A DNA stretch of 64,000 bases from Methylosinus sporium (GCF_044758975.1 NZ_CP172862.1), one strand, 5' to 3'. Numbered from the stretch's first letter, positions 4,113 through 48,817 are shown. The notes: generated by a model not told the origin, from the sequence alone. Program-made: numbers and translations.

Positions 4113-4115
4113 CGC

Positions 4116-5039: not shown

Positions 5040-5091
5040 CCTTACCCTGTAGCGAACGGGTCACAGCCGGGCGATAAAGGGTTGGCGTGGC

Positions 5092-7293: not shown

Positions 7294-7445
7294 CGACGAC
7301 GAAACAGGACGGCAGGCCCGGTTTTGACGGCGCATCAGATTTTCCAGAGTGACGAACTCTGGCGGGGCGACGCCCTGCGGCGCGAGCGTGAGCTCGCGGC
7401 GGGACTTGCTTTCGCGGGTCTTGCTTTCATGAGCGCGCGCCCCAG

Positions 7446-8558: not shown

Positions 8559-8635
8559 CGTCGGCGCCCTTGCGCGCGGCCGCGCGACGAGGCAATTCTC
8601 CGCGCGTGGCTGGGTTTTCTCATGACGAGCGTCGG

Positions 8636-8974
8636 ATGATCATCGATCGGCGTCCGCCCGCGCGCGGCGCGGGACGGCGCTTGCTCTTTCTCATGCGTCT
8701 CGCCGCATCGGCGGCGGCGCTCTCAATTCCCGAGACGGCTTTCGCGCAGGCGGCTCCCGGCTTCAATCTCTGCGTGCAGCCAGGCGCGCCCCCTTGCGTC
8801 TTCATGCCCGGCCGGGCGGCGGAGGCCTGCGGGGCCGAGGTCGAGGCCTATATCGCCTCCGTATTCCATTATCGCGAATGTCTCTCCAAGGAGAGCGAGC
8901 GCGTGATTCGCGAATCGAACGACGTCATCGACCATTGGCGATGCCGGGAGCGCGGCGAGCGGTGCCGCAAATGA
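8636..8974 (+). CDS. Small secreted Cys-rich protein (~112 aa), hypothetical
   Basis: Signal peptide MIIDRRPPARGAGRRLLFLMRLAASAAALSIPETAFAQ. Six Cys in the mature part. High GC3. Its stop overlaps the ATG of the downstream glycosyltransferase (ATGA at 8971-8974). Confidence 0.5.
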   Translation: MIIDRRPPARGAGRRLLFLMRLAASAAALSIPETAFAQAAPGFNLCVQPGAPPCVFMPGRAAEACGAEVEAYIASVFHYRECLSKESERVIRESNDVIDHWRCRERGERCRK

Positions 8975-10269
8975 AGCGGCCCGTGGTCTATGACGTCACG
9001 CGGCTCGTCACGCGCGCGCTCAATCCGACGCCCAATGGCATAGATCGGGTCGATTTCGCTCTGGCGCGGCATTTTCTCTCGGGCGAGGGCGGCGTCGCGT
9101 TGGCCGCGGCGGCGCTCGGGCCGCGGCTCGCCTCCGCCGAGGCGGGGCTGCGCACGCTCATCGACATAGAGACCTATTGGAACGAGCTTCGCGATTCCTC
9201 CACGGACGACGGCTTCTCCACGGACGAGATGTACGAGCGTGTGGTCGCCTCGCTCGGCGCGACGCCGCAGGGGCCGCGGGCGCCGCGGGTGGCGCGTCGC
9301 GATTGGGCGATCGTTCGAGAGAATTGGCGCGCCATGCGGCGCTGGGCTCTGCGTCTCGGGCGGCCGCCGTCGGAGGCGCCGGAGGGCGCCGTGTTCTTCA
9401 ATGCGAGCCAGTTTCCCGTGCATAAGGAATGGCATTTGCGCTGGCTCGACGCGCGGCCGGACGTGAAGCCCGTCTTCTTCGTCTATGATCTCCTGCCGCT
9501 GGACGCGCCCGAATTCTTCCGTCCGGCCGAGCGCGACAAGCATCGTCTGGTCATGGGCAATATCGTGCGGCGGGCGGCGGGGGTGGTCGTCGCATCGGCT
9601 TCGGTCGCGCGGCGGGTCGCGGACTATGCGAAAGAGAAGGGCAGGGGCGATCTGCCGGTCTGCGTCGCCGGCCTGCCGGCGGCGCCCGCCTTCGAGCGCG
9701 AGGCGGTCGCCGATCCGCGGCTCGCCGACACGCCTTATTTCGTCTTCTGCAGCACGATCGAGCCGCGCAAGAATCATATGCTTCTGCTCGACGTCTGGCG
9801 CGAGCTGGCCGAGCGCGCGGGCGCGGGCGCGCCCAAGCTCGTCCTCGTCGGCAAGCGCGGCTGGCACAATGAGAATGTGCTCCGCATGCTGGAGCGCTGC
9901 GCGGCCCTGCGCCCGCATGTGGTGGAGGCCTCCGGCCTGTCGACGCCGGCGATGCGGCGGCTGCTGGCCGGCGCGCGCGCCGCGCTCGCGCCCTCCTTCG
10001 CGGAAGGATTCGGGCTCCCCATCGCCGAGGCCGCGGCCTGCGGCGCCCCGATCATCGCCTCCGACATAGAGATATTTCGCGAGATCGCCGACGACACGCT
10101 CGACTATATCGATCCGCTCGACGGCCTCGGCTGGCGCGACGCGATCCTCGACTATAGCGCCCCCGATTCGCCGCGCCGCGCCGCGGCTTCGCGGCGGATC
10201 GCAGGGTTCCCGCGCCGCGACGCCGCTTCTTTTTTCGAGACGATCGACGAATTCCTCCGCGCTTTGTGA
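8971..10269 (+). CDS. Glycosyltransferase family 1 (GT4-like)
   Basis: C-terminal EPRKNHMLLLDVW...APSFAEGFGLPIAEAAACGAPIIASDIEIFREI is the GT1/GT4 donor-binding signature. The start MKRPVVYDVTRL is coupled to the upstream small ORF. Confidence 0.8.
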   Translation: MKRPVVYDVTRLVTRALNPTPNGIDRVDFALARHFLSGEGGVALAAAALGPRLASAEAGLRTLIDIETYWNELRDSSTDDGFSTDEMYERVVASLGATPQGPRAPRVARRDWAIVRENWRAMRRWALRLGRPPSEAPEGAVFFNASQFPVHKEWHLRWLDARPDVKPVFFVYDLLPLDAPEFFRPAERDKHRLVMGNIVRRAAGVVVASASVARRVADYAKEKGRGDLPVCVAGLPAAPAFEREAVADPRLADTPYFVFCSTIEPRKNHMLLLDVWRELAERAGAGAPKLVLVGKRGWHNENVLRMLERCAALRPHVVEASGLSTPAMRRLLAGARAALAPSFAEGFGLPIAEAAACGAPIIASDIEIFREIADDTLDYIDPLDGLGWRDAILDYSAPDSPRRAAASRRIAGFPRRDAASFFETIDEFLRAL

Positions 10270-27210: not shown

Positions 27211-28638
27211 TCAAGCGCGTTGCGCCGCCTGGTCGCGCAGGCGGGCGAGGCTCTCTTCCTTGCCGAGGATCGCCAGCACGTCGAAAATGCCGGGGGAGGT
27301 GGTGCGCCCGGTGAGCGCGGCGCGCAATGGCTGCGCCAGATCGCCGAGCTTGACGCCCTGCGCCGCCGCCGTCTCGCGCACGATATTCTCGGTCGCGGCG
27401 GCGCTCCACTCCTCGAGCGCGGCCAGCTTTTCCGTCAGCGCGGCGAGATGCGCCTTCGCCGCCGGCGACAGCAGCGCGGCGGCCTTGGCGTCCAGCGCCA
27501 GCGGCCGCTCGGCGAAGAGGAAGCCCGAGCCGTCGACCAGCTCGTTGAGCGTCTTGGCGCGCGCCTTGAGGCCGGGCATGGCCGCGGCGAGCTGCGCCTT
27601 GCGCGTGTCGTCGAGCTTGGCGGCGAGCGCCGCGCCGCCCTCGAGATAGGGCAGAGTGGCGATCAGCGCCTCGAGCAGCTCGGAATCCTCGCTGCTGCGC
27701 AGATAATGGCCGTTCATATTCTCGAGCTTCACGAAATCGAAGCGCGCCGGCGAGCGATGAATGCTCTCGAGATCGAAAGCCTCGATCATCTCCGCGGTCG
27801 AGAAAAACTCGCGGTCGCCCTGGCTCCAGCCGAGGCGCAGAAGATAATTGCGCAGCGCCGCCGGCAGATAGCCCATGCCGCGATAGGCGTCCACGCCGAG
27901 CGCGCCATGGCGCTTCGACAGCTTGGCGCCGTCCGGCCCATGGATGAGCGGAATATGGGCGAGCTTGGGCGCCTCCCATCCCAGCGCGTCATAGATGTGC
28001 TTTTGCCGCGCGGCGTTGGTGAGATGATCGTCGCCGCGGATGATCTGCGTGACGCCCATATCGTGATCGTCGACGACGACGGCGAGCATATAGGTCGGCG
28101 CGCCATCCGAGCGCAGCAGCACGAAATCGTCGATATCCTTGTTGGGGAAGACGACGCGGCCCTGCACGGCGTCCTCGATCACCGTCTCGCCCTCTTGCGG
28201 AGTCTTCAGCCGAATGACCGGCGCGACGCCCGCCGGCGCCTCGGACGGATCGCGGTCGCGCCAGCGCCCGTCATAGCGCGGCGGACGGCCCTCGGCGCGC
28301 GCCCTCTCGCGCATCTCCTCCAGCTCCTGCGCGCTGGCGTAGCAGCGATAGGCCTTGCCTTTGGCGAGCAGCTCCTCGGCGATCTCGCGATGACGCGGCG
28401 CGCGCGCGAATTGAAATACGGCGTCGCCGTCCCAATCGAGCCCGAGCCAGCGCATTCCATCGAAAATAGCGTCGACGGCCGCCTGGGTGGAGCGCTCGCG
28501 ATCCGTGTCTTCTATGCGCAGCAGAAAGCGCCCGCCGTGGCGCTTGGCGTAGAGCCAGCTGAACAGCGCCGTGCGCGCGCTGCCGATATGGAGGAAGCCG
28601 GTGGGAGAGGGGGCGAAGCGCGTGACGACCTGAGACAT
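27211..28638 (-). CDS. gltX: Glutamate--tRNA ligase
   Basis: HIGH-type motif ([14 protein letters not shown]) and KMSKS-type motif (KLSKRHG). Start MSQVVTRF at M95. Confidence 0.92.
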
Positions 28639-28744
28639 GAGCGCGGCTGACGGTCCTTGAGAATTTAGAGCGGAGGCCCGTCTAGCACGCTGCGGGCCAG
28701 GGGGGAACTGCGGGGGGAGGGGCGCGCCCTGCCTCGGCTTCCGG

Positions 28745-28960
28745 CCGATGGCGCAACCCTCGCCCTCATGCCGAGAACAGGGGCGTCGAGCGCGGCCTTC
28801 GGGAACTCGCCCTCGTGCTTCGAGACGGCTCCTGCGGAGCCTCCTCAGCATGAGGGCGAGGGTTGAGGCCTTTCCCGCATCGCCCCTGCATTCCGGCGCC
28901 TCGGCAGAAGCTTTCCTCATCCTGAGGAGCCCGCGCAGCGGGCGTCTCGAAGGACGAGGA
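28745..28960. repeat. Two nested palindromic REP-like elements in opposite orientation
   Basis: Element A (28758-28861) is closed by 14-bp inverted termini CCTCGCCCTCATGC / GCATGAGGGCGAGG. Element B (~28907-28958) is TTCCTCATCCTGAGGAGCCCGCGCAGCGGGCGTCTCGAAGGACGAGGAA, with an inner GCCCGC-GCA-GCGGGC palindrome. A carries an inverted diverged copy of B's core. Confidence 0.55.
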
Positions 28961-28984: not shown

Positions 28985-30703
28985 TCACGAGAGAAAATCG
29001 AGAATGGGTCGCAGCCACTCCTCGATTTGCGGAAACTGATGCATCAGTTTTTGGATGGTCAGCGCTATGGCGCCGCCTTTTACGCCTATATAGCCCGCGC
29101 TCGTGACCGGCACGCCGATCAAAGCGCGTTTGGCCCATTTCGTCAGCTCGGGGCCGACTCCGTCGCCGAGCTTGCCGGCTTCTTTCACTATGCTCTTTTC
29201 GGCATGGCTCGCAAAGTTTTTCCCGGCGCGCTTCGCTGTTCCAGCCACGCCGTTCTTTGTAGAGATCGCCGCTTCGGCGATCGTCTTCAACACATTATCG
29301 ATGCTGGCGACGAGGTCTTCCGCCAGAAGATCGGCGCCCGCGGCGATCGGATCAAAGCGTTCGGCCTGCGCGTCGCGCTGGGCAGCGAGGCGGCTCGCCA
29401 TCTCACTCACGATCGCCGCGATTTCTTGCTCGACGAATTGCGCCGCCTCGTCTTCGCGTAACGCTTCCGCGAATTCGGCCGCGATGCGCGGCGTCTCCTC
29501 GCGCTGCTCGGCGGTGAGGCGGTCCTTTTCGGCGTTCGCCTTGAACTCGCGCCATTTCGGGAATTGTCGCACGGTACGATCGAAGGCGCGCGTAGCGGCG
29601 AGATAATCCGCGGCGAGCATGCGCGGCCATTCTTCGACGACGCCCGCGGCGTAAGCGTCGAGCTTTTCTTGCTCATGGGCGAGGCGAAACAATTGCTCCT
29701 GCGTCGGGCGTTTCGTCGGAATGAGGTCGGCGAGGCGTCGCAGAGAGGCGGCCGCGCGCTTGTCGATATTCGACTCTGCGTCGAGGCTTTCGACGAGATC
29801 GCCGAACTGCCGTTTCAATGCGAGCAAGGCTGCATTAAGAGCGCGAGCGTCGAGTTCTGCGCTGGCGGGCTTTTTCCGAAGGAGGATTTTTCCGTCCTCC
29901 GAGATCGGCTCGAGCGCAGCAGGTTTCGGTTCTGGAATTTTTGGCTGTTCGCGCGGCTTCTGTTTCTGCGTCAGCCGCGCGATTTCCTGTGCGAGCAGCG
30001 CATTTTGCTCGGCGGGGTCTTTCTCGCGCGGGTCGACGGGCAACGTCGCGAAGAGAAGCTCGATCTCCTCCGAGAGCTCCACGCCGTCGAGGCGGCGTTC
30101 GTACCAGTCGAACCAGGGCCGCCAATGCGTTTCCGCGAGGAGATCGCGCAAGAGCCACCAACGCTGTTTTACCCATGTCGGTGCGCCGCTCTGCGACCAC
30201 AGTGGATCGCCTGCGAGTTCGATCGGGGAGCGACCTGCTTCGAGCGCCGTGACGTCGCCGGAAATAGAACGCCAAATGGCGGCGCCATTGTTGTGGTAGT
30301 AGGCCGCAGCCGAGGCCGCGGCCTCGGCTGCGGCGGTAGCAGCGTAGATGTTGTCGGTGACGGCGGTAAAGTCGACAGCGTGGGCGGCGAAGGAGGCGGC
30401 GGGATCAGCGGCGTATTTGGCGACGTCGGCGGCACGAAGGCCATTGGTTCGGGCCGGATATTTGATGGCTACACGCGCTACCGCATTAGGCCAAAATATT
30501 GCCAGTGCCTCTTGCCCGAATTCCAGCGCTTTCAGTTCCTGAGCCCTTCGCGCCGTCAGTGGCAGGACTCTGAGTGCTGCGCGCGCCGCGATGACTCCCG
30601 CTGCTGGCTCCTGCCGATCAGGTGGCTGTGCCTCGAACCATCGCCTCAAGCTCCCTGAGTTGGAAATCCTCGGCTGTTCCTCTTCGTCGTCCAAATTCGA
30701 CAT
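28985..30703 (-). CDS. Large (572 aa) hypothetical protein, Ala/Glu-rich, no recognisable domain
   Basis: Start [10 protein letters not shown] at M77 of the ORF. No signal peptide or TM helix seen. Its upstream region (30704-31001) contains an A8 run and the lowest GC of the window. Divergently arranged with the flotillin gene. Confidence 0.5.
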
Positions 30704-31001
30704 GAAAAAAAACTCCGCGCCGTAGCGAGGATGGATGCTCGCGAGCCAAAAAGCAAGGTGCGCCGCGCGGACGAGAAGACTCCGATAGTTAACTTTTTTA
30801 TGGATATATTTCAGCTGGTTGTGCTCAGATTCGTGCTCCTTCCAACCCCACCCCTCCTTGCAACTCCCCCGCCGCGTCCCCACGTCTCGCGCCGCATGAT
30901 CCGCGGCTGCGCCGAAGGCGCGGCGCCGCATGCTCCCGGCGGAATGCGCCTGGGAGAAAAGGCTTTGAACCGCGCATTCCGCTCAACCATGAGCAAATGA
31001 G

Positions 31002-34291: not shown

Positions 34292-36547
34292 TTGGTGAGT
34301 TGGAGCGCGAAAGCCGTCGCCGGCGCGGCCGATCGGGCGCGGGGCGTCATCCGCCCCGCTTCGTCGGCCGCTTTCGCGTCGCTCGCCGCCGGCGCCCGCG
34401 CCGCGCTGGAAGAAGAGATCGCGCTGCGGCGGCCGTTTCTGTGGCTGCCCGTCGCGTCCGGCGCCGGCGTCCTTCTCTATTTCGCGGCCGATCGCGAGCC
34501 CTCGTTCGCCGCCTCGGCGGCGGGCGTCGTCATTCTGGCGGCGCTCGCCGTCCTTCTGCGCGCGCATAGGGCGGGCGCTCTGCTTCTCATGCTCGCCTGC
34601 CTCTCGGGCGGCTTCTTCGCCGCCGTCTGGCGCGCCGCGCGCGTCGATGCGCCGATCGTCTCACGCGCCGGCGTCGGCTTTCTCACCGGCTTCGTCGAGG
34701 AGCTGGACCCGCGCCCCAATGGCGCGCGCTTCATTCTGCGCATCGCCAGCGCGGAAGGACTGCCCAATGACGTCGCGCCCTTTCGCGTTCGGCTGACGAC
34801 GCGGGGCGAGGCGAAATTTTCGGCCGGCGATTTCATCGCGCTGAAGGCGCGCGTGCTGCCGCCGGCCCACGCCGCTCTGCCGGGCGGCTATGATTTCTCG
34901 CGCGACGCATATTTCGCCGGCCTCGGCGGCGTCGGCAATGCGCTCGGCCGCATCGACGTCTTGCCGCCGCCCGATCCTGCGCCAATGTCGCTGCGCTTCT
35001 TCGCCGCCGTCGATCGGCTGCGCAATGCGCTGGCGGCGCGGGTCTATCGCGCGCTCGGCGGCGACACCGGCGCCATCGCCGCCGCAATGGTGACGGGCAA
35101 GCGCGATTTTCTGGGCGAGGAGGCAAAAGAGCTGATCCGCCGCGCCGGCATATTCCACATCATCACGATATCCGGCGTGCAGATGACGCTCGTCGCCGGC
35201 ATTTTCTTCGTCGGGCTGCGACGGCTGCTGGCGCTCTCGCGCACGCTGGCGTTGAATTATCCGATCAAGAAATGGGCGGCCGGCGTCGCCATCATCGGCG
35301 CCGTTCTCTACGATATCGGCACGGGCTCGCGCGTCGGCACGGAGCGCGCGCTCATCATGACGACGATCATGCTGATCGCCGTGCTCTTCGATCGTCCGTC
35401 TCTGTCCATGCGCAATCTGGCGCTGGCGGTTTTCTTCATCGTCGCCTTCCAGCCGGAGGCGCTGCTCGGGGCCAGCTTTCAGCTCTCCTTCGCCGCGGTG
35501 GCGGCGCTGGTCGCCGTCTATGAGGCGCGCGGCGCGCTCATCGAGCGTCGGCGCGAGCCGCCCGCCTTCGGCCGAACGCCGACGCGCTTCATGCGCTGGC
35601 GCGAGAATATGGGCGAGCTATTGCTGCGCGGGCCGGCGGCGCCGATCTTCGCGACTCTCTGCGCCACATCGGCGACGGCCTCCTTCATGGCGGACGATTT
35701 TCACGAATTGAGCCCCTATGTGCTGATCGGCAATCCGCTGACGCTCGCCATCATCGAATTCTTCGCCGTGCCGGGGGCGCTGCTCGGCGCCTTTCTCTAT
35801 CCTCTCGGCCTCGACGGTCCGGTCTGGCGCTATGTCGGCTTCGGCATCGATCTCGTCACCGCCATTGCGCGGCTCATCGGCGCCGCGCCCGGCGCCAGCC
35901 TGCCGGTGAAGAGCTTCGCGCCTTTCGCGATTATTTTCCTGTCGCTCGCGGTTCTCTCGCTCGTGCTGTGGCGGACATGGCTGTTCCGGGCGACGGCCAT
36001 TCCCTTCGCCATGCTCGGCCTCTTCGGCGCCGCCAGCGGAGAGGGCTTCGATCTCGCCGTCGCGCCCGGCGGCGACGCCGCGGCGCTGCGCCTGCCCTCG
36101 GGCGAGCTGGCGCTGCTCGGCCGCGGAAAGCTCTCCTTCGTCGGCGAGCAATGGCTGCGCGCCGACGCCGACGCCAGAGCACCGGCCGACGCCCGCGGCG
36201 GCGTCTCCTGCGACGATCTCGGCTGCGTGGCCAAGGCGATCGACGGCCGCGCCGTCGCGCTGGCGACGGACCGCAAGGCGCTGATCGAGGATTGCGCCCG
36301 CGCGGCGATCGTCATCGCGCCCTTCTATGCGCCGGAGGGCTGTGGCGCGCCGATCCTGCTCGATCGCCGCAAGCTCGCCGAGACAGGCGCGGCGACGCTG
36401 CGCTTTGTCGGCGAGCGAGTGGAATGGCGAACCGCCCGCGCCCCGGGCGAGGACCGCCCCTGGTCGCGCGCGCCGAGGCGGAGGGCGGCGAGCGCGTCGC
36501 CTTCCGGCGCGGAGCCGCCCCTCGAGGAGGAGGAGCGGCTGAACTAA
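34292..36547 (+). CDS. comEC: ComEC/Rec2 family DNA-uptake channel protein
   Basis: Multi-pass membrane protein with a competence-domain core (IFHIITISGVQMTLVAGIFF resembles the ISGLH region). No C-terminal metallo-beta-lactamase fold recognisable. TTG/GTG start. Confidence 0.7.
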   Translation: MVSWSAKAVAGAADRARGVIRPASSAAFASLAAGARAALEEEIALRRPFLWLPVASGAGVLLYFAADREPSFAASAAGVVILAALAVLLRAHRAGALLLMLACLSGGFFAAVWRAARVDAPIVSRAGVGFLTGFVEELDPRPNGARFILRIASAEGLPNDVAPFRVRLTTRGEAKFSAGDFIALKARVLPPAHAALPGGYDFSRDAYFAGLGGVGNALGRIDVLPPPDPAPMSLRFFAAVDRLRNALAARVYRALGGDTGAIAAAMVTGKRDFLGEEAKELIRRAGIFHIITISGVQMTLVAGIFFVGLRRLLALSRTLALNYPIKKWAAGVAIIGAVLYDIGTGSRVGTERALIMTTIMLIAVLFDRPSLSMRNLALAVFFIVAFQPEALLGASFQLSFAAVAALVAVYEARGALIERRREPPAFGRTPTRFMRWRENMGELLLRGPAAPIFATLCATSATASFMADDFHELSPYVLIGNPLTLAIIEFFAVPGALLGAFLYPLGLDGPVWRYVGFGIDLVTAIARLIGAAPGASLPVKSFAPFAIIFLSLAVLSLVLWRTWLFRATAIPFAMLGLFGAASGEGFDLAVAPGGDAAALRLPSGELALLGRGKLSFVGEQWLRADADARAPADARGGVSCDDLGCVAKAIDGRAVALATDRKALIEDCARAAIVIAPFYAPEGCGAPILLDRRKLAETGAATLRFVGERVEWRTARAPGEDRPWSRAPRRRAASASPSGAEPPLEEEERLN

Positions 36548-36548
36548 A

Positions 36549-37427
36549 TCAGACGCTCTCCAGCGTCTTGGCGCATTCGGCGATGAAGGGCACGGACTTC
36601 CAGGCGTCGTCCATTCTGCCGAGAGATTCGAAGATGATGTCGATCACGCCGGACAAGGACATTTCGCGGGGCGCGTATTGGGGCTGCTTGAGCCAAGTGA
36701 AGCCGCCCTCGAAGCCGAAACGACGCGCGATCTCGGGATAGACGGGCCATACTTCCGAGATAGCGAGCCTATCGGGCTGTGTCCGGCGCAGCGACTCGGA
36801 GCGAGCGAAGGCCTCTTCGTCGAGAAAGCGCCCCTTCAGCGCGTTCCGAGCAATGTCGACCAGAACGAAGCTGCGAGGGTGGTGGCAGATATAGAAGAAA
36901 TCGCGCTGCGTTTCCCAATAATCGAACGCATCTTGCAGCCCAATTCCATATTTGCCGAATTCGGCGACGAGGCGGCTTCTGTCGGTCTTATACAGGTCGA
37001 AATAGCCGAGCTTCTCATAGACGTCTTCACGGAAGAGCGCCTGCGTCTCCTCCGCCGTCTTGCCGATCGCCCGTGCGCCCAGCGCGATCAGAGAGGTCTG
37101 CGTGTGCGGCGCGCCCTCGCTGAATGGTCCCCAGAAGCCGTCCAGCATGGCGACGTCTGGATGCAGGCCGCGGAAATACAGCTCTGGAATGATCACGCGT
37201 TCGGCGTCGGGATTGAGCGCGCTCGCCAAGCGGAGCCCGTCGAGCGGCCAGCCGATATAGAGATCGCACTCTTTGAGATATTTCTCGAACTCGGGCTTCT
37301 CGCCGGTCTCGAGCCATCGCTCCGCCTCGTTGAATCCGGCGCCCTTGATCGTCCAATCGGGGAACAGCGTCTGGACCACCTCGTAATAGGTGGAGGTCAC
37401 GCAATTCGAAACAATGATGACCTTCAT
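36549..37427 (-). CDS. Conserved hypothetical protein (292 aa), possibly WcbI-like; function unknown
   Basis: Soluble, with an MKVIIVSNCVTSTYYEVVQTLFPDW N-terminus. Immediately downstream of, and 1 bp from, the GSCFA gene on the same strand. GC slightly lower than neighbours. Confidence 0.5.
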   Translation of the reverse strand: MKVIIVSNCVTSTYYEVVQTLFPDWTIKGAGFNEAERWLETGEKPEFEKYLKECDLYIGWPLDGLRLASALNPDAERVIIPELYFRGLHPDVAMLDGFWGPFSEGAPHTQTSLIALGARAIGKTAEETQALFREDVYEKLGYFDLYKTDRSRLVAEFGKYGIGLQDAFDYWETQRDFFYICHHPRSFVLVDIARNALKGRFLDEEAFARSESLRRTQPDRLAISEVWPVYPEIARRFGFEGGFTWLKQPQYAPREMSLSGVIDIIFESLGRMDDAWKSVPFIAECAKTLESV

Positions 37428-37428
37428 C

Positions 37429-38475
37429 TCAAAACCCTATGTTCGTGCCGTATTTCTCTTCGTCGCAGATGATGCGGCCCGCATAGGACTGGTCCAGCAC
37501 GCCGCTCGCGGCGGCCGGCTTCGCCGGCGGGGCGACAGGTTCCGACGTCTGGCCGAAATAGGCGGCCTTGAAGACGCGCATGACATGGGAGACGCCGATT
37601 TCGGGCACGGTGCGCTTATTGCTGTCGTAATATTTTCCATTGTTGAAATGGCTGGAGATAATCTCGTAGGACGGGAAATAGTAGACGTTCTCGACAGAGC
37701 TCTCGACGCTGCCGCAGACGGCGCGCAGCACCGACTTGCTGTAGACGGTCGCCGACAGCACATGCTCATCGGTGTAGGTCGCCGTGAGCGGCACCGGCGA
37801 GACGGTCAGAATGACGCGCGCGCCCGGATTGATCTTGCGCAGCCCGGCCAGGAACTCCTCGAGATCGGCCTTCACCTCCTCATAGGAATAGCGATGGAAG
37901 AGGGCGGCGGAGGCCTGCGGATCATCCGTCGTGACGCCGGGGTGAATGGGCAGAACGAACTGGCCGTCCGGCGTCGTCCAGCCCTCGATGAGCCCGAGCG
38001 TGAAGACGAACACGGTGCAATCGGCAAACACGCGGCGCACCGCCTCGAGATGCGCGCGCCGGGCGGCGGCGACGTCCTCGACGCTCGTGAAGCCTTCCGT
38101 ATAGGTGGTCGGACGAAAAGCGTCGACCAGGCGTCCGTCGGGACGCGGCAGCGCCAGCGGCGGCAGGCTCAGCTGGCCGGTGGCCTCGAGCAGAAGCTGG
38201 CGAAGCTGGGCGACCGTATAGATATTGCCATAGCGCGCCGAGAACACCGGCTGATCGGCGGGGCTCGCCTCGGTCTGCAGGAAGCGGACGCCCGGCATCG
38301 CTTCTATGTAGCGGGACACGTGCTGCGCGAAGCAGCTGCCCGCGGTCGCTATGCGGTCTTCTTCGCCGATGAGGAATTTCTTGTGCGGGATCGGGCTGAC
38401 ATCCTCGGGAGCGAGGTCGGCGACAGCCGTGCGCCAGAATTGGGAAGGCCCCTTCGTCGCATATGGATTGCCCAT
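37429..38475 (-). CDS. GSCFA-family protein (uncharacterised, SGNH-hydrolase-like)
   Basis: Contains the family-defining G-S-C-F-A motif (IATAGSCFAQHV) near the N-terminus. 348 aa. Confidence 0.65.
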   Translation of the reverse strand: MGNPYATKGPSQFWRTAVADLAPEDVSPIPHKKFLIGEEDRIATAGSCFAQHVSRYIEAMPGVRFLQTEASPADQPVFSARYGNIYTVAQLRQLLLEATGQLSLPPLALPRPDGRLVDAFRPTTYTEGFTSVEDVAAARRAHLEAVRRVFADCTVFVFTLGLIEGWTTPDGQFVLPIHPGVTTDDPQASAALFHRYSYEEVKADLEEFLAGLRKINPGARVILTVSPVPLTATYTDEHVLSATVYSKSVLRAVCGSVESSVENVYYFPSYEIISSHFNNGKYYDSNKRTVPEIGVSHVMRVFKAAYFGQTSEPVAPPAKPAAASGVLDQSYAGRIICDEEKYGTNIGF

Positions 38476-40696: not shown

Positions 40697-42214
40697 CTAG
40701 TAGGCGTTCTCGGTCTTCAGCAGCGCGATCGGCGTCAGCGCGAGAATATAGATATCGAGCAGGATCGACCAGTTCTCTATGTAGTAGAGATCGCATTCGA
40801 CGCGCTTCTGGATCTTCTCGGGCGTGTCGGTCTCGCCGCGCCAGCCATTGATCTGCGCCCAGCCGGTGAGGCCGGGCTTGACGCGATGGCGGGCGAAATA
40901 GCCGTCGACGACCTCGTCATAGAGATGCTCGGCGGCGCGCGCATGCATGGCGTGGGGGCGGGGGCCGACCAGCGACAGATTGCCCTGGAACACGACATTG
41001 AACAGCTGCGGCAGCTCGTCCAGCGAGGTCTTGCGGATGAAGCGGCCGACGCGGGTCACGCGCGGATCGCCCTTGGTGACGAGCTTGGCCGCGGCGGGAT
41101 CGAGCTTGTCCGCATACATGGAGCGGAATTTATAGACCTCGATCTTCTCATTGTTGAAGCCGTAGCGCGTCTGGCGGAACAGCACCGGGCCGCGCGAGTC
41201 GAGCTTGATGGCGAGCGCCACCGCCGCCATCACGGGCGCGAAGAGCAAAAGGCACAGTGCGCCGACGATCTTGTCGAAGGCGGATTTGATGAGCACGTCC
41301 CAATCGGCGATCGGCTTGTCGAAGACGTCGAGAACCGGAACATTGCCGATGTAGGAGTAAGAGCGCGGGCGAAAGCGCAGCTTATTGGTGTGCGCGGCGA
41401 GCCGAATGTCGATCGGCAGCACCCAGAGCTTGCGCAGCATTTGCAATAGGCGCGTCTCGGCCGAGATGGGCAGGGTGAAAATCACGAGATCGAGCCGCGT
41501 GTGCCGCGCGAATTCGACGAGATCGTCGATCGTGCCGAGCTTGGGATAGCCGGCGACGACATCCGGCGAGCGATCGTCGCGGCGATCGTCGAACACGCCC
41601 AATATGCGCAGATCGCTGTCCTGCTGCGAGGCGGCGAGCGCGCGCAACACGGGCTCGGCCGCCGGGCCGCCGCCCACGACGACAGTGCGACGGTCGAGCT
41701 TGCCCTGCTGCGTCAGCGAGCGCACCACGGCGGCGACGGCGAAGCGCTCCGCCGCCAGCACGGCGAGACCGCCCGCGTACCAGCCGAGCAGCCAGACGCG
41801 CGACAGAGCATTGTCGAGCTTCAGGAAGAAGATCGCCGCGAGCGCCGCGAGAAAGACGAGGGTCCAGCCGCCTGCGAGCTTGAGCCCCTGGCCGATGGGC
41901 GTGCGAAAAGCGGTGGGCGTGTAGAGATCGAGCGCCTGCCAGGCGACGACCGCGAGCAGCGCCATTCCGGGAATGACGATGAAATATTCGAAGCCATAGC
42001 CATAGCCCGGCGCGACATGCAGCCGATGCACGGCGAAGCCGGTCGCAGTGATCAGCGCGAATTCGAGGATGCGGACGAGGCCCGCCAGCACGACCGGCGA
42101 ATAGGCTGGAATCGGCCGCGCGTCGGCGGAGATTTCCGCCAGCCGCGAGGCGGCGCGACTATCGTCATTGGCCGGCGCGGCCGCTTTGATGTCGCGTAGG
42201 GCGAAAGCACACAT
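40697..42214 (-). CDS. Undecaprenyl-phosphate hexose-1-phosphate transferase (WbaP/ExoY-type priming phosphoglycosyltransferase)
   Basis: Five N-terminal TM helices and the C-terminal bacterial sugar-transferase domain ([22 protein letters not shown]...[12 protein letters not shown]). Confidence 0.85.
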
Positions 42215-42230
42215 GACGTCACTCCACTCA

Positions 42231-43459
42231 TCAGGCCCGCTGCGGCAGAACGGCCTCCGCGGCGCTGCGATGTCCGGCGGCCTCCAGCGCTTCGCGATAT
42301 CCGCGCAGCACGGCCTCGACCATTGCAGTCAAAGAGAAATTTTCTGCTACTCGTTCAGCGAGCTGGCCGGCGGCGCGCCTCCGCGCCTCCTCGTTCATGC
42401 CGCTCGCGGCGATCATCGCGCGCGCCAGCGCCGCCGGATCGTCGCTCTCGACGAGACGATTCGCGTGCTCGCCGAAAATCTCTGGAATGCCGCCGACATT
42501 GGTGGCGATCAGCGGCGTGCGCGCGGCGATGGCTTCGAGCACGATATAGGGAAGCGACTCGGCCCGGCTCGGCACCACCAATATGCGCCCCAGCCGCAGC
42601 GCCTCGCGCGCCGGCATGGGCGGCGCGAAGGAGAGACGCTCGCTCACGCCGAGCCTCTCGGCGCAGGCGCGCAGAGCCGCTTCGTCCGGCCCGGAGCCGA
42701 CGAGGGCGAGCCGCGGCGCTTCGCCGGTCGCGTCGCGAATGAGCGACAGCGCCTCGATCAGCGTGTCCACGCCTTTGAAGCGGCGCCATTCGCCGACATA
42801 GAGAAAATCCGCCGCTCCGGCGATTGGGGTGATCGGCTCGAGCTCCTCCGGCCGCAGCCCATTGGGCACGACGCGAGTCGCCGCGCGGGAGAAGCCGATC
42901 GCTCTCGCGAAGCGCTCTTGCGCATAGGCGCTCTCGAAAGGAATGAAATCGGTGACGCGCTCCAGCGCCTTCTCCACCGAGAGATAGAGACGATTGACGA
43001 GCGCGTCGGGATCGTAATGGAGGCTGCCGCCATGCGGCGTGTAGACGCGAATATGCGGATGCGGCAGCGTCGGAAACAAGGGCAGCAGCGCCGGCAGGCG
43101 CGCATAGAGCCCGCCTTTGGCGCCGTGGCCATGCACGACATCGGGCGCGAGCCGCTTGAGCGCCATGGCGATGCGAAAGGCGACGATCGGATCGCTCCAG
43201 CTCGGCAGCCGGCGCATGCACAGACGCGTGACGCCGAGCTCAGCGAGGGCTCGAGCATTCGCAGCGTCGCCTCCGCGCGCTCGCCGCCGGTGGAGGAATC
43301 GGCGATGACGCCGACCGCATGTCCGCGCGCCGCCTGGGCGCCGGCGAGATCGACGACATGACGAAAGAGCCCGCCGATCGGCGCGCGCATCACATGCACG
43401 ATGCGCAGCCGTCCGGGGCTCTCGTCGTCGCTCGTCTGGCTCTGCCGGTTCTCGCGCAT
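42231..43459 (-). pseudogene. Glycosyltransferase family 1 gene interrupted by a frameshift
   Basis: The N-terminal GT4 domain (RIVHVMRAPIGGLFRHVVDLAGAQAARGHAVGVIADSSTGG) is in the frame ending at 43459. The rest (…LAPDVVHGHGAKGG…VVPSRAESLPYIVLEAIAARTPLIATNVGGIPEIF…) is in the frame 42231..43217. The two frames differ by 1 nt with the switch near 43220-43290. Confidence 0.6.
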
Positions 43460-43467
43460 CTTTCTTC

Positions 43468-44034
43468 TTAGAAAATCCGTTCGCGAACAGTGATCGTGTC
43501 TCCTGGCCGGACCGCCTGCAGCAAAGGCACGCGGCCGGTGACTGGAACGCCGCCGTAGTCGCGCGTCAAATCGACCTCGCCTTGATAGCCGCGCGGGTTG
43601 AAGCCGCCGGCTATGGCGATCGCCTTCTGCACGGTGAGACCCTCGACGAAAGGATATTGTCCGGCGCTCATCACTTCTCCGAGCACGAAGAAGGGACGAT
43701 ACGCCTCGACTTCCACCGAGACGCGAGGATCGCGGACGAATCCGTTGCGCAAACGTGCGGCGATTTCATGTTGCAGCGCCTGGGTCGTGAGGCCGGCCGC
43801 CGGAACGATGCCGATGAGCGGCATCGAAATATGGCCGGAGCCGTCGACCGTGTAGCTGTTGGAGATCGCATCCTGGCCGAAGACGATCACGCGAAGCCGA
43901 TCGCCTGCCGCGAGCGTGTAGGGCTCCTCGGTCGAGGAGGTCAAAAGCTCTGGAACATAGGCGCCCGGCAGGGCGCATCCCGACAATGTCGCGCACATCA
44001 TCAGCCAGAACAGGAGAAAGCCATATCTCGGCAT
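43468..44034 (-). CDS. Polysaccharide export lipoprotein (short Wza/ExoF-like, Poly_export + SLBB)
   Basis: Lipobox CATLSGC, poly-export motif LAAGDRLRVIVFG, SLBB-like C-terminus. Confidence 0.8.
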   Translation of the reverse strand: MPRYGFLLFWLMMCATLSGCALPGAYVPELLTSSTEEPYTLAAGDRLRVIVFGQDAISNSYTVDGSGHISMPLIGIVPAAGLTTQALQHEIAARLRNGFVRDPRVSVEVEAYRPFFVLGEVMSAGQYPFVEGLTVQKAIAIAGGFNPRGYQGEVDLTRDYGGVPVTGRVPLLQAVRPGDTITVRERIF

Positions 44035-44223
44035 TTAGAATCTCGGGCTCGAGGAACAGCTAAAGAACGTGTCCCGGGGAAATTTTTTAACGGTTCATGG
44101 TTAACAAAGCCTGATCGCCGCGGGCCGCTTCGTCGCCTCTCGAATGGCGCCGTCTCGCCGCGGTTAACCCCGCGGAAACCATAATCTCGGTACAAGGTCC
44201 GAGCGCCAATTGGAGTTCGCGAG
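44035..44223. promoter_or_regulatory. Divergent promoter region of the EPS locus with repeated GGTTAAC-containing sites
   Basis: TTAACGGTTCATGGTTAAC (44087-44105) and CGGTTAACCCCGCGGAAACCATAATC (~44161-44186) between the divergently transcribed export-lipoprotein and exoP-like genes. Confidence 0.35.
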
Positions 44224-46479
44224 ATGAGTTTCGGCCACCCTCACGATGACGCGGGGAGCCCCCGGGGCGAGACGGGACGCGCGATTTCGCGCGAGGTCCC
44301 GCAGACAGACGTCTCGACCGGCGAGATCGATCTCGGGCAGATCGCCGGCGCCTTGTCGCGCCGCCGCCGCATCGTGATCGGCGTGACGCTCGCCGCTTTT
44401 CTCGGCTCGCTCGTCTTCGTCAATGTCGTCAAGCCGCGCTACACGGCCGAGGCGCGCGTGCTGCTCGAGAATCAAGAGAGCTATCTGACCCGCGCCGACA
44501 AGGAGCGCTCCGACCCCACCGCGGCGCCCGACGCCGAAGCCGTGCAGAGCCAGATTCAAATGCTCACCTCGCGCGATCTCGCGCGGCGCGTGCTGAAATC
44601 GCTCGATCTGCAAGGCAATTCCGAATTCGATCCGATCGCCAACGGTCTCGGGCTCGGCACGAAGATCGGCGTGATGCTGGGACTGACGCGCGATCCTTCC
44701 AAGCTCGCGCCGGAAGAGCGCATGCTGGACGCCTATTTCGACAAGCTGCTCGTGCTGTCTCCGACCAAGACGCGCGTGCTGCAGATCGAATTTTCCGCGC
44801 GCGATCCCGATCTCGCGGCGCGCGCCGCCAACGCTATCGCTTCCTTCTATATAGACATTCAGCGTGAGGCGAAGCGCGAGAACGCTCGCGACGCCGCGCA
44901 ATCGCTGAGTCCGCTGGTCGCCGATCTGCGCGAGCGGCTCGGCCGGGCCGAGGCCAAGGTGGAGGCCTTCCGCTCGCGTTCCGGCCTCTTCGCCGGCACG
45001 AATAATATGACGATCGCCACGCAGCAGCTCGGCGACCTCACCAATCAGCTCTCCATTTCGCGCACGGCGCAGGCCGACGCCGAGGCGAAAGCGAAGCTGG
45101 TGCGCGACATGCTGCGGCAAAATCGCGTGGGAGAAATTCCCGACGTCGCCAATAATGAGATGATCCGCCGCATCGGCGAGCAGCGCGTGTCGCTGCGCGC
45201 TCAGCTCGCGCTCGAATCGCGCACGCTGCTGCCCGGCCATCCGCGCATAAAGGAGCTGCAGGCGCAGCTCGCCGATCTCGACGCCGATTGGCGCCGCGCC
45301 GCCGAGCGCACCGCGCGCACATTGGAGAATGAGGCGCATATCGCCTCCTCCCGCGTCGAGAATCTCTCTCGCGCCATGGACGAGCAGAAGCGCGTCGCCG
45401 GCGCCGCGGGCGCGGATGAGGTGCAGCTACGTGAGCTCGAGCGCGCCGCGCGCGTGCTCAAGGATCAGCTCGAGGCGGATTCGGCCAAATATCAGGAAGC
45501 GCTGGCGCGCGAGGGTCCGAAGGCTTCGCCCGCCGACGCGCGCGTCATTCAGCGCGCCGTCGCGCCGCCGATTCCCTCCTTCCCGAAAAAGGTTCCGATC
45601 ACCGCCTTTGCGACGATCGCCGCTTTTGTTCTCTCCGCGGGATCGATCGTCGCGATCGAGCTGCTGAGCGGCCGCGCGCGCGCTACGGCGCCGCTTCCGG
45701 TTCCGCGCCTCGAGGAGCGCGACGACGCGGAGCTGGAGGCGCCGCCCAAGGCGCGCATCGCCGCCGATCGGCGCGAGCCGACCTTTGTGGAGCCCGAAGA
45801 AGAAGAGGAGCAGGCGCCGCCTCCGAAGATGGCGAGCCTCGCCGCCGAGCCGCGGACGCGCCTGTCGCCCTCGCGCACGCCCAAGCTCGAAAGCAGATCG
45901 ACGCGCGCCTATCGATCGAGCGTCGTCGGAAAGATCGACGCGGCGCGCATGGCGACGCTCTCGGTGAAAGTTCTGCTGGTCGGCTGCGCCGACGCCGAGC
46001 ATAGTTTCGACAGCGCGGTGACATTGTCGCGCGCGCTGGCGCGGCGCGGCCTCGCCATTATCGTCGCCGCCGATGCGCAGGAGCGCGGCGAGCTCTATGA
46101 TCGGCTGATCCCCGATGTCGATCGCGCCCGGCCGCTCGGCCTCGCCGATCTTTCGAGCGGCGCCGCGACCTTCGCCGAGGCCATTCATCGCGACGCGGAT
46201 TCGCGTTTGCATGTGATGCCGGGCGGCCGCGCCGCGGCGGAATATGATCAGGACGCCGAGCCCGTGCTGGAAGCGCTGGCGCAGACCTATGATTTCATCG
46301 TCTTCGCCACGCGCGATTATGATCGCGCCATGTTCCTCGCGCCGTCCTTCGACATCGTTCTGGTGAGCGGCTCCGAGCGCGCGGCCGAGGCGGTCATCGA
46401 CGAGCTGGCGCAAGCGGGCGTCAGCGACGCCTTCCTGCTCGAGGACGAGACCGCTCCCGCCGACGCTTCGGCCGCGTAA
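44224..46479 (+). CDS. Polysaccharide co-polymerase / chain-length determinant protein (ExoP/Wzc/GumC family) with a degenerate C-terminal ATPase domain
   Basis: Wzz-like N-terminal region (TM + KPRYTAEARVLLENQESYL), long periplasmic coiled-coil, second TM. The C-terminal CpsD/Wzc-like fold lacks a canonical Walker A (VKVLLVGCADAEHSFDSAVTL). Confidence 0.8.
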   Translation: MSFGHPHDDAGSPRGETGRAISREVPQTDVSTGEIDLGQIAGALSRRRRIVIGVTLAAFLGSLVFVNVVKPRYTAEARVLLENQESYLTRADKERSDPTAAPDAEAVQSQIQMLTSRDLARRVLKSLDLQGNSEFDPIANGLGLGTKIGVMLGLTRDPSKLAPEERMLDAYFDKLLVLSPTKTRVLQIEFSARDPDLAARAANAIASFYIDIQREAKRENARDAAQSLSPLVADLRERLGRAEAKVEAFRSRSGLFAGTNNMTIATQQLGDLTNQLSISRTAQADAEAKAKLVRDMLRQNRVGEIPDVANNEMIRRIGEQRVSLRAQLALESRTLLPGHPRIKELQAQLADLDADWRRAAERTARTLENEAHIASSRVENLSRAMDEQKRVAGAAGADEVQLRELERAARVLKDQLEADSAKYQEALAREGPKASPADARVIQRAVAPPIPSFPKKVPITAFATIAAFVLSAGSIVAIELLSGRARATAPLPVPRLEERDDAELEAPPKARIAADRREPTFVEPEEEEEQAPPPKMASLAAEPRTRLSPSRTPKLESRSTRAYRSSVVGKIDAARMATLSVKVLLVGCADAEHSFDSAVTLSRALARRGLAIIVAADAQERGELYDRLIPDVDRARPLGLADLSSGAATFAEAIHRDADSRLHVMPGGRAAAEYDQDAEPVLEALAQTYDFIVFATRDYDRAMFLAPSFDIVLVSGSERAAEAVIDELAQAGVSDAFLLEDETAPADASAA

Positions 46480-46481
46480 AG

Positions 46482-47648
46482 TCAGCGCGCGAGTCGGCGC
46501 AGCTCGGTGAGCTTGGCGAGAAGACGCGGATTCTGCTTCACCGCGCGCTTGGCGCGGGTGAGCGCGGACAGCACGGGCGCCGCGAGCGCGCCGAGCGTTG
46601 TCGCCGGAATGAGCGTGTCGACGAGCGCGATCGTCTCGTCGCAGACGGCGTTCTTGTAGCGCGCCTCGCCGACGCCGAGATCGAAGCGCGTGACGCCGCG
46701 TGAGAGAAGATCGCGCAGCAGCGAATGCAGCAGCAGATCGCCGGGCGAGGAGCGCGCGATCTCCTCATCCGCCACGAAGGAATTGAGCATCGCCGAAAAG
46801 CGCCCGCGATGGGTGAAGCCCGCATAGGTCGCGATGATGCGCGCGTTCAGCGTCAGCGCATGGACCTCGAGCGCGCCGCCGCAGAGGCCGAGCACGAAAT
46901 CGCGCATGGCGCCGCTCGCAAAGGAGGGATCCTGCAAGCGCTCGGCCTTTTGCGCGAGCAGCGCCTCGAGAATTTCTGTCGCGCGCGCGCCCGTCGCGCC
47001 ATGCTCGAAGACGAGCGCGCCCATTTTCTCGAGCCGCGCCTGCTTCTTGCGCAGCTTCTTGCGCGTATCGGCGGAGAAGCGCGCGTCGAGCTCGCTCGCT
47101 GTCGCAGGAAGGCTCGTCCCATAGGCGAAGCTCGGGCTCGCGCTCGAGCCGGGCAGGGCGAGCGGATTGGCGACGCCCTCGAAAGTCTGCGGCTGATTGG
47201 CGAGGCGATAGAGATCGACGCCGCCGGCGCGCGCGGCGCGGCGCAGCAGAGCGCGAAGCGCGGCGGCGTCGAGACGCGCATCGGCGGCGAAGAGGCCGAG
47301 ATTGAAATTGCTCTCCTTGCCGCCGAGAAATTGCGCGATCCGCAGCGGGCCGAGACGCGATGTCGCCAGCGCGAGCAGTGCGAGAGGGCGCGCGTTCTCG
47401 CCATGCCTCGCGACGACGATCATCGGCGTGAGGCCGCGCGCGCGTCCGAATGTCTCGAACCAATCGCGCGCGAATCCGAAAGATTGATAGGCGCTGGCCG
47501 GCGCATTGGCGAACAGAACCTCCCAATCAGCGCGCGCCGCCTCGAAGGAGGCGAAGACGTCGAGCGAGATTGCGTCCACGGACGTCTCTGGTCGCGACAG
47601 ATCCATGAGGCTTTCTTCTGTGAGATTCTCTGCCCTTGCATTAACCAT
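46482..47648 (-). CDS. GNAT-fold acyltransferase of the CelD/BioF2-like (Acetyltransf_6) family
   Basis: ~390 aa with a C-terminal GNAT-like block (VHALTLNARIIATYAGFTHRGRFSAMLNSF). Common in EPS/cellulose loci. Confidence 0.55.
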   Translation of the reverse strand: MVNARAENLTEESLMDLSRPETSVDAISLDVFASFEAARADWEVLFANAPASAYQSFGFARDWFETFGRARGLTPMIVVARHGENARPLALLALATSRLGPLRIAQFLGGKESNFNLGLFAADARLDAAALRALLRRAARAGGVDLYRLANQPQTFEGVANPLALPGSSASPSFAYGTSLPATASELDARFSADTRKKLRKKQARLEKMGALVFEHGATGARATEILEALLAQKAERLQDPSFASGAMRDFVLGLCGGALEVHALTLNARIIATYAGFTHRGRFSAMLNSFVADEEIARSSPGDLLLHSLLRDLLSRGVTRFDLGVGEARYKNAVCDETIALVDTLIPATTLGALAAPVLSALTRAKRAVKQNPRLLAKLTELRRLAR

Positions 47649-47761
47649 ATCGTCGCCGCATTGCTGATGTTTGCGCTTCTTCGCGACACTAGCAAGGAAA
47701 GGTCAACGAGACCTCGAGATGGTGGGCGCAGAAAAAGAAATGCGCGGGGAGGCGCGGGGTT

Positions 47762-48817
47762 GTGACGAAATGGCGTCGAATGGCCATAGAGGCGGGCATG
47801 GAGTTCTTCCGCGCGAGCGGCGTGCACCGTCTGGCCGAGCCTTATACGCGCGGGCTGGGCGCGATATTGATGTTCCATCGCGTGCGTCCGCGGCTCGAGC
47901 AGGCCTTCGAGCCCAATCAGCCGCTCGAGATCACGCCGGAGTTTTTGAACGCGCTGATCGCGCGGCTGCGTCAGCGCGGCGTCGAGATCGTCTCGCTGGA
48001 GACCGCGCTCGCGCGGCTGCGCGCCGGCGAGGCCGGGACGCCCTTCGCGGTCCTCACCTTCGACGACGGCTATCGCGATTTTGTCGAGCATGCGCTGCCG
48101 GCGCTGGAGCGCCACAATGCGCCATTCACGCTCTATCTCACCGCAGGTTACGCCGACGCTTCGGCGCGGCTGTGGTGGGTGGAGCTGGAGGAGGCGATCC
48201 GGCGCCTCGATCGTCTCGACGTCATCGCCGGCGGCAAGCACATTTGCTGCGCGGCGGCGACGGCGGCGCAAAAGCGCGTCGCATTCGCCGAGGTCTATGC
48301 GCAGCTGCGCGCCGGCGACGAGGCGGAGCTGTTGCGCGTCGTCACCGCTCTCTCCGCCGAGGCGCGGATCGAGCCTCACGCGCTCACGCGGCGTCTTTGT
48401 CTCGGATGGAGCGAGCTGCGCGCGCTGGCCGATCACCCGCTGGCGACGATCGGCGCGCATTCGGTGACGCATGCGCGATTGGCCAAGGTGGATTGCGCGG
48501 CCGCCATCTATGAGATGGCCGAGAGCCGGCTGCGTCTAGAGTCCGAGCTGCAACGGCCGGTCCCGCATTTTTGCTATCCGGTCGGCGACCCGACCTCGGC
48601 GGCGCGACGGGAATTCGAGCTGGCGGCTCGGCTCGGCTTCGCCAGCGCCGTGACGACGCGTGCGGGCATGATCTTTCCCGAGCATCGCGAGCGTCTCATG
48701 TCGCTGCCGCGGCTCTCGGTGAATGGGCGTCATCAGTCGCTCGCCGCGCTGGACATTCTCCTGTCCGGCGCGCCTTTCGTTCTGATGAACGGAGGCCGCC
48801 GCGTGGCGGCGGCCTGA
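47762..48817 (+). CDS. Polysaccharide deacetylase (NodB-homology, carbohydrate esterase 4)
   Basis: LTFDDGYRDFVEHALPALERHNAPFTLYLTAGY contains the NodB TFDDG motif. Confidence 0.8.
   Translation: MTKWRRMAIEAGMEFFRASGVHRLAEPYTRGLGAILMFHRVRPRLEQAFEPNQPLEITPEFLNALIARLRQRGVEIVSLETALARLRAGEAGTPFAVLTFDDGYRDFVEHALPALERHNAPFTLYLTAGYADASARLWWVELEEAIRRLDRLDVIAGGKHICCAAATAAQKRVAFAEVYAQLRAGDEAELLRVVTALSAEARIEPHALTRRLCLGWSELRALADHPLATIGAHSVTHARLAKVDCAAAIYEMAESRLRLESELQRPVPHFCYPVGDPTSAARREFELAARLGFASAVTTRAGMIFPEHRERLMSLPRLSVNGRHQSLAALDILLSGAPFVLMNGGRRVAAA

Follow-up and report, generated by a model that had tools for sequence, protein, structure and literature searches.

The GSCFA and WcbI-like gene pair

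The 64,000-nucleotide stretch of Methylosinus sporium DNA analysed here (GCF_044758975.1, NZ_CP172862.1; hereafter the window) carries on its minus strand two abutting genes that form the subject of this paper: a GSCFA-family gene (37429..38475), whose open reading frame (ORF) contains IATAGSCFAQHV and encodes an SGNH-fold subunit of 348 amino acids, and a WcbI-family gene (36549..37427), encoding a putative acetyl-CoA-binding donor subunit of 292 amino acids. An earlier note on the same DNA, made from the sequence alone, had described the two as an operon of uncharacterised proteins lying 1 bp apart, and the positions and the 1-nt spacing that it gave for the two ORFs are exact. The junction, read directly from the sequence, is TGA-g-ATG (37425..37431, minus strand), that is, the GSCFA stop codon, a single-nucleotide spacer and the WcbI-like start codon, an arrangement consistent with translational coupling of the two genes.

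Pfam searches secure both family assignments, including the second, which the note had worded only as a possibility. The GSCFA protein scores 150.1 bits with PF08885, a family of the SGNH clan whose gathering cut-off is 25 (E = 1.1e-43), the match spanning profile positions 1-237 of 237 and residues 41-302 of the protein. Its partner scores 66.9 bits with PF18588 (E = 2.5e-18; gathering cut-off 29.2). Neither protein of the pair is covered by an NCBIfam model. Each gene is thus a member of a known family, and the copy of the pair in the window is an unexceptional example of a module that occurs widely; the value of the case lies in the general association of GSCFA with WcbI, documented below, rather than in this particular copy. 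This near-obligate partnership appears to be undescribed so far: within the literature that could be searched, no paper names WcbI together with SGNH, and the GSCFA papers listed there are, as far as their titles and abstracts tell, not about WcbI.

Linkage and fusion of the two genes across bacterial phyla

For the GSCFA side, species-representative genomes were scanned with a GSCFA alignment and the partners encoded at the resulting 80 loci were classified with locally built profile hidden Markov models (HMMs). The loci come from Alpha-, Beta- and Gammaproteobacteria, Actinomycetes, Negativicutes, Acidobacteriota, Planctomycetota, Verrucomicrobiota, Bacteroidota and Desulfarculales. A WcbI-like domain is adjacent to GSCFA (in either order) or fused to it in 48 of the 80: within a single stop-free ORF in 19, as a gene following GSCFA (the order seen in the window) in 16, as a gene preceding it in 12, and on the opposite strand in one. 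Its place is taken at 25 loci by a gene related to that for PipF, the neighbour of the GSCFA protein PipG of Pseudomonas entomophila discussed below; WcbI-type and PipF-type loci make up about 60% and 31% of the sample, respectively. The seven loci with neither partner include two cut contigs, two with partial WcbI matches and one with a weak PipF-like match. The nearest GSCFA relative shares the partner class in 75 of 75 cases, as against about 54% expected by chance.

The reverse sample, a metagenome scan with a WcbI-like alignment, also yielded 80 loci. GSCFA is present in 65 of these, or 65 of the 66 that can be assessed (24 fused, 29 with GSCFA upstream, seven downstream and five divergent), with 14 of the remaining loci lying on contigs too short to judge and one having room on both sides and no GSCFA. 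Eight homologues of one or the other window protein were also looked up individually on their contigs (P0007, P0015, P0031, P0045, P0066, P0114, P0020 and P0022); each has the partner gene directly beside it, and they occur in unrelated contexts, including planctomycete glycosyltransferase and sulfotransferase genes, recA/alaS, phosphotransferase system (PTS) genes, an AMP-ligase gene and a natural-product-like cluster. Planctomycete homologues are 67% and 69% identical to the two window proteins, and such similar values are as expected if both genes were inherited or transferred jointly. With the two genes side by side or joined in one ORF in many phyla and amid unrelated genes, the pairing is far beyond chance, and the linkage to GSCFA is essentially obligate for this WcbI subfamily. 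The impression of a conserved unit given in the earlier note has thus held up on both sides of the pair.

The two domains have repeatedly become parts of one protein. At least 43 independent single-ORF GSCFA-WcbI fusions were found, a 645-aa protein of Sporomusa rhizae being one natural example, and Pfam recognises PF18588 together with PF08885 within single ORFs of six phylogenetically distant organisms; the fusion in entry P0166, likewise confirmed by Pfam, has the gene order of the window itself. Gene fusion argues for a physical interaction of the GSCFA and WcbI-like proteins. WcbI-like domains are fused also to an FkbM methyltransferase (along with GSCFA), a CE4 polysaccharide deacetylase, a GT61 glycosyltransferase and DUF4214, and frequently to tetratricopeptide repeats (TPR), with long TPR arrays in proteins of up to 1803 aa (entries with extra fused domains or TPR are P0265, P0229, L027 5454-9047, P0144 / L005 7079-12490, P0180 and P0190). 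Such additional domains suggest glycan-directed roles as well as recruitment through protein-protein contacts. DUF4214 heads some large fusions, in which it is followed by two to three WcbI domains and GSCFA (as at L035 5469-9044), and it occurs fused to a GT1 (wcbH-like) domain in an ORF adjoining a wcbI gene of the Burkholderia pseudomallei type (L094 2-1429). The link between DUF4214 and WcbI, seen in L094, L035, P0145 and P0148, is thus a recurrent one.

Some loci stand apart from this pattern. A region of Muricoccus radiodurans (L036) has two GSCFA genes, at 3461-5122 on the minus and 7050-9056 on the plus strand; one is fused to WcbI and the second, on the other strand, lies in a locus that also has a PipF-like hit. 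Since both types occur in this region, WcbI- and PipF-type systems can coexist in one organism. Methylocystis genomes likewise harbour fused copies (L044, L046) and PipF-type copies (L066, L071). A Brevibacterium/Paracoccus pair of loci (L064 2816-3802 and L084 2566-3633) contains GSCFA genes with neither a WcbI-like nor a PipF-like partner; both adjoin an ORF that the two loci have in common, lying upstream, about 330-355 aa long and giving a faint alpha/beta-hydrolase (Esterase) signal, so that GSCFA may have a third class of partner.

Folds and conserved residues

The GSCFA protein has the SGNH-hydrolase fold (flavodoxin-like, alpha/beta/alpha), which it shares mostly with esterases, and the structural neighbours of its model include the SGNH domains of PatB and OatA. 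The motif after which the family is named, A45-G-S47-C48-F-A-Q-H52, is encoded at 38320..38343 (minus strand); Ser47 is the block-I serine and Cys48 the equivalent of Cys-47 of PipG. In a set of 75 GSCFA proteins drawn from the two partner classes, S47, C48, Q51, E69, N84, D118, R121, T159, G161, E164, N216, S226, K247, E271 and R288 never vary, and G83 is nearly invariant (73/75). As far as conservation indicates, block V of canonical SGNH proteins appears to be missing from the family: no His beyond the last core strand is invariant, the motif there being Y-F-P-x-Y-E271, and H297 is variable and replaced by Phe in PipG. A further invariant residue lies outside the Pfam domain. C337, the first residue of a C-D-E-E motif (residues 337-340, codons 37456..37467, minus strand), is kept in all 75 proteins, PipG included, as part of a [VIL]-C-[DE]-E-E signature within a disordered, Pro/Ala-rich C-terminal tail whose confidence score (pLDDT, the predicted local distance difference test) in the predicted structure is below 50. 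This cysteine could serve as a swinging arm or as a docking element.

The partner has the WcbI cradle fold, with an N-terminal ligand-binding subdomain and the helical subdomain first seen as novel in WcbI. Its sequence identity to WcbI is only about 15%; single-sequence searches against PDB sequences gave no match, and WcbI was reached only with profiles, a broad WcbI-like profile aligning to 4bqn with E = 2e-7. In this alignment Cys9 (codon 37401..37403, minus strand) is the equivalent of WcbI Cys14, with the WcbI segment YGSC14Q aligned on the invariant Cys, and His183 (codon 36879..36881, minus strand) is the equivalent of His201, with MNH201P aligned on a conserved HP. In the crystal structure Cys14 bonds the thiol of coenzyme A (CoA) and forms a hydrogen bond to the acetyl carbonyl, to which His201 is also hydrogen-bonded (PMC4104973). 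Among 126 distinct WcbI-like domains the C9 position is Cys in 123 and the H183 position is His in 124. An exhaustive representative search retrieved about 880 WcbI-like clusters (at 50% identity) with E <= 1e-30 and about 1,600 with E <= 1e-10.

Genomic setting and possible acceptors

The pair is flanked, as the earlier note had it, by ComEC on one side (Competence and DUF4131 domains in Pfam), oriented convergently, and by a DUF2865 protein on the other. The stop codons of ComEC and the WcbI-like gene are 1 nt apart (36547-36551), too close for separate terminators to fit between the genes. A single terminator-like hairpin was seen (36551-36568, minus strand); it falls within the WcbI-like coding sequence, at its 3' end, and does not surpass those in shuffled sequences. 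Promoter and terminator counts as a whole do not exceed those of shuffles, and evidence for operon boundaries is therefore absent. The G+C content of the pair (0.60-0.66) lies below that of its flanks (0.68-0.76), as had also been noticed, and the same holds for third codon positions (GC3 0.78 and 0.82 in the two genes against 0.84-0.87 in the neighbours); the dip is genuine yet modest. The locus is collinear with that of a close relative, with 86% nucleotide identity over 15.7 kb, so that the pair is not a recent insertion, and synteny at this distance is uninformative. The nearest relatives of both proteins are found in Methylosinus and Methylocapsa (96% and 86% identity).

Upstream of the pair and on the same strand lie genes for the DUF2865 protein, a response regulator and a DUF423 protein, and then an exopolysaccharide locus (40697-48817). 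It encodes a priming transferase (Bac_transf and CoA_binding_3 domains), a family 4 glycosyltransferase (GT4), a Wza-like exporter, a 751-aa Wzz-like protein, a FemAB-like protein (Acetyltransf_6) and a polysaccharide deacetylase. The locus is about 2 kb away and co-directional, the pair being the end of a string of genes that begins at the priming glycosyltransferase; we presume it to resemble loci of the PEP-CTERM/EpsH type. Non-ribosomal peptide synthetase or polyketide synthase (NRPS/PKS) genes were not seen near the pair in the window.

Clustering of the neighbour families across 80 loci (55 of the WcbI class and 25 of the PipF class) points in a similar direction. Recurrent neighbours are sugar-nucleotide epimerases (17 loci, 13 of them WcbI-class), ABC-transporter ATPases (15, 13), ABC-2 permeases (14, 10), GT4 glycosyltransferases (11, 10), RmlD (8, 5), Wza/KpsD-like exporters (7, all WcbI-class) and Capsule_synth proteins of the KpsC/S type (5, all WcbI-class), the same ABC-transporter capsule architecture as that of the wcb locus. 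No family occurs in more than 17 of the 80 clustered loci, and an obligatory third component was thus not found among them. The closest homologue outside the family, from a planctomycete, adjoins glycosyltransferase and sulfotransferase genes. The recurrence of capsule and sugar genes, together with the carbohydrate-active nature of the extra fused domains, favours glycan substrates for many members. The most likely candidate for the acceptor is a sugar of a polysaccharide or of a glycoconjugate precursor; in the window this may be the product of the co-directional exopolysaccharide locus.

Elsewhere in the window, a 648-aa ORF (28985-30931, minus strand) has a G+C content below its surroundings and adjoins a 569-aa ORF (27211-28920) whose translation, on reading alone, resembles glutamyl-tRNA synthetase. 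No tRNA genes and no Rfam families at the gathering threshold were found in the whole 64-kb window (1-64000).

Proposed function and alternative explanations

The statement of the earlier note that the unit has no known role is dated, as PipG, to which the window GSCFA protein is 41% identical (over 316 residues, E = 5e-59), is genetically required for an O-acetylation (PMC12828459) and WcbI binds acetyl-CoA (PMC4104973). We consider it fairly probable, judging from sequence and from these homologues, that the pair constitutes a soluble, cytoplasmic two-component O-acetyl (acyl) transferase dependent on acetyl-CoA, its acceptor being most likely a sugar. The WcbI-like subunit would bind acetyl-CoA and present or accept the acetyl group at the C9/H183 cradle; the acetyl group would then pass to S47/C48 of the GSCFA subunit, possibly by way of the flexible tail with Cys337, and the GSCFA subunit would transfer it to a hydroxyl of the acceptor. 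Family membership, folds, linkage and residue conservation come from the present analysis, the acetylation role of a GSCFA protein and CoA binding by WcbI from the work of others on homologues, and it is from these together that we infer how the acetyl group is passed on, which way the reaction runs and what it acetylates. A bolder form of this idea, which we put forward tentatively, is that the pair represents an unrecognised class of soluble O-acetyltransferases, in which a WcbI cradle might charge an SGNH-fold protein devoid of a catalytic His and a cysteine relay, perhaps involving the tail arm, might lead to Ser47 and on to the acceptor.

Several observations weigh against a sugar O-acetyltransferase. 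The GSCFA family shows, judged by conservation only, no invariant block-V Asp-x-x-His, and SGNH-type catalysis is therefore not assured. WcbI on its own showed no detectable acetyltransferase activity, bound no acceptor and revealed no acceptor site (PMC4104973). The B. pseudomallei-type wcbI gene, on the single contig of this kind recovered, is flanked by GT1+DUF4214 (wcbH-like) and RmlD-like (wcbJ-like) genes with no adjacent GSCFA, unlike the gene in the window, so that the archetype may use another partner. In the one characterised GSCFA system, GSCFA works with a canonical SGNH protein and with PipD rather than with WcbI. As for the acceptor, many pairs have no glycan genes nearby (recA/alaS or PTS genes, for example), one lies beside genes for a P450, a sulfotransferase, AMP-binding and carrier proteins and a glycosyltransferase in what looks like a natural-product cluster, and the fusions to TPR raise the possibility that proteins are bound or acetylated.

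These last points are the substance of one alternative, namely an acetyltransferase acting on a small molecule or natural product, or on a protein or protein-linked glycan, with the proximity to exopolysaccharide genes being coincidental. The sole characterised GSCFA system does act on a depsipeptide (PMC12828459), protein recognition is suggested by the frequency with which WcbI-like domains are joined to TPR, and in the window the unrelated DUF2865, response regulator and DUF423 genes separate the pair from the exopolysaccharide genes. We nevertheless hold such acceptors to be rather improbable, given that capsule-export and sugar-nucleotide genes are the neighbours that recur, that the extra fused domains (FkbM methyltransferase, CE4, GT61) are carbohydrate-active, and that the window pair has no NRPS/PKS genes in its vicinity. 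Alternatively the pair could be a hydrolase, with GSCFA an O-acetyl esterase or the whole complex an acyl-CoA thioesterase in which the WcbI-like protein binds or regulates the CoA ester. The prevalence of esterases within the SGNH fold, the binding of CoA and acetyl-CoA by WcbI with transfer never detected (PMC4104973) and the fusion of one WcbI-like protein to a CE4 deacetylase domain would all fit. Deletion of pipG, however, abolishes O-acetylation and makes the non-acetylated precursor accumulate, the opposite of what loss of an esterase would do (PMC12828459); transferases, PatB and OatA, are among the structural neighbours, and there is no obvious rationale for a cytoplasmic esterase tied obligately to an acetyl-CoA binder. 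A hydrolytic role is therefore unlikely.

Finally, the two genes might be mere neighbours with independent functions and the "operon" a local accident, as the lack of promoter and terminator evidence and a local synteny common only to very close relatives would allow. Against the fusions enumerated above, the adjacency at nearly all assessable WcbI-like loci in many phyla and unrelated contexts, and the similar identities to the planctomycete homologues, this explanation is effectively refuted.

Comparison with known acetylation systems

The closest parallel is the PipDFG system of P. entomophila, reported in December 2025, in which the depsipeptide pseudotetraivprolide receives its terminal O-acetyl group only if PipG (a GSCFA protein), the always-adjacent PipF and PipD are all present; pipG was complemented only together with pipF, and Cys-47 of PipG (the C of G-S-C-F-A) is essential in vivo, whereas the counterpart of C337 was not among the residues mutated (PMC12828459). 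PipDFG serves detoxin/rimosamide-like biosynthesis (PMC12828459). PipG and the window GSCFA protein are homologous along the whole of the latter and share an N-terminal NPY...FW motif, the motif cysteine (Cys-47 and C48, respectively) and the C-terminal Cys-acidic tail, and in both systems the GSCFA gene abuts that of a partner whose product carries a nucleophile and a His. The partner in the window has the WcbI fold, whereas PipF is a canonical SGNH protein, and the context of PipDFG is of the NRPS/PKS type, unlike that of the window. The idea that PipF might itself be WcbI-like was rejected: it has the canonical GDSH...DxxH signature, and hhalign (with the Pip sequences taken from the supplement of PMC12828459) gave a probability of 0.1% for PipF against the WcbI-like profile and of 0.4% between the profiles of the two partner families. 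An HMM of the PipF-like family, built from GSCFA neighbours, recovers PipF with E = 2e-11 and has no match in the window. No PipD-like gene was found with phmmer in the window or in the 91 loci searched, although PipD is poorly conserved and a distant analogue may exist. Since both types of partner bring a nucleophile and a His (Cys and His in WcbI-like proteins, Ser, Asp and His in PipF), the data are consistent with GSCFA being catalytically incomplete alone. The GSCFA-WcbI module is, then, a variant related to these recently found GSCFA-based acetylation complexes.

WcbI of B. pseudomallei (PDB 4bqn/4bqo), encoded in the locus for the capsular polysaccharide CPS-I, binds CoA and acetyl-CoA tightly, with a dissociation constant for acetyl-CoA of about 58 uM, and its authors proposed in 2013 that it needs an unidentified partner (PMC4104973). 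While the subfamily in the window is essentially always paired with GSCFA, the wcbI gene of the B. pseudomallei type, on the only such contig recovered (2.9 kb, with wcbI as a 122-aa fragment), is not, and the model for the GSCFA-linked pair may not extend to WcbI itself.

The linkage and the frequent fusions nonetheless provide each of two orphan families with a concrete and testable partner, GSCFA having been one of five SGNH families without known activity or structure in a 2022 review (PMC9487903) and WcbI, which binds CoA and is associated with virulence, having lacked its proposed partner since 2013 (PMC4104973). For biochemical and crystallographic work, the natural fusions offer constructs that already join the two domains. 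If the proposed function is correct, GSCFA would have a role beyond the Pip system, the kind of partner that WcbI misses would be identified, and WcbI of B. pseudomallei may likewise rely on a protein of the SGNH or GSCFA type whose gene lies at another place in the genome. Annotation could then call a new cytoplasmic O-acetyltransferase class comprising roughly a thousand clusters at 50% identity in many phyla, with relevance to the decoration of capsules and exopolysaccharides, to antigenicity and to the tailoring of natural products.

A broader comparison can be made with two-step O-acetyltransferases that use an SGNH transferase module, namely OatA, PatA/PatB, AlgI/AlgJ/AlgX and the AT3-SGNH acetyltransferases of LPS (see PMC9487903). 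As in our model, a donor module in these systems hands an acetyl group to an SGNH module and the hydroxyl of a carbohydrate is acetylated. Their donor is an integral membrane protein, either a membrane-bound O-acyltransferase (MBOAT) or an acyltransferase 3 (AT3), and their SGNH module is extracytoplasmic. When the translations of the pair were read by eye, with no predictor run, neither showed a clear signal peptide or an extended hydrophobic stretch, and domain scans of the pair and of neighbouring genes between 31002 and 50211 detected neither AT3 nor MBOAT. The donor in the window would instead be a CoA cradle of the WcbI fold, and its GSCFA module, unlike the SGNH modules of those systems, has no conserved block-V His.

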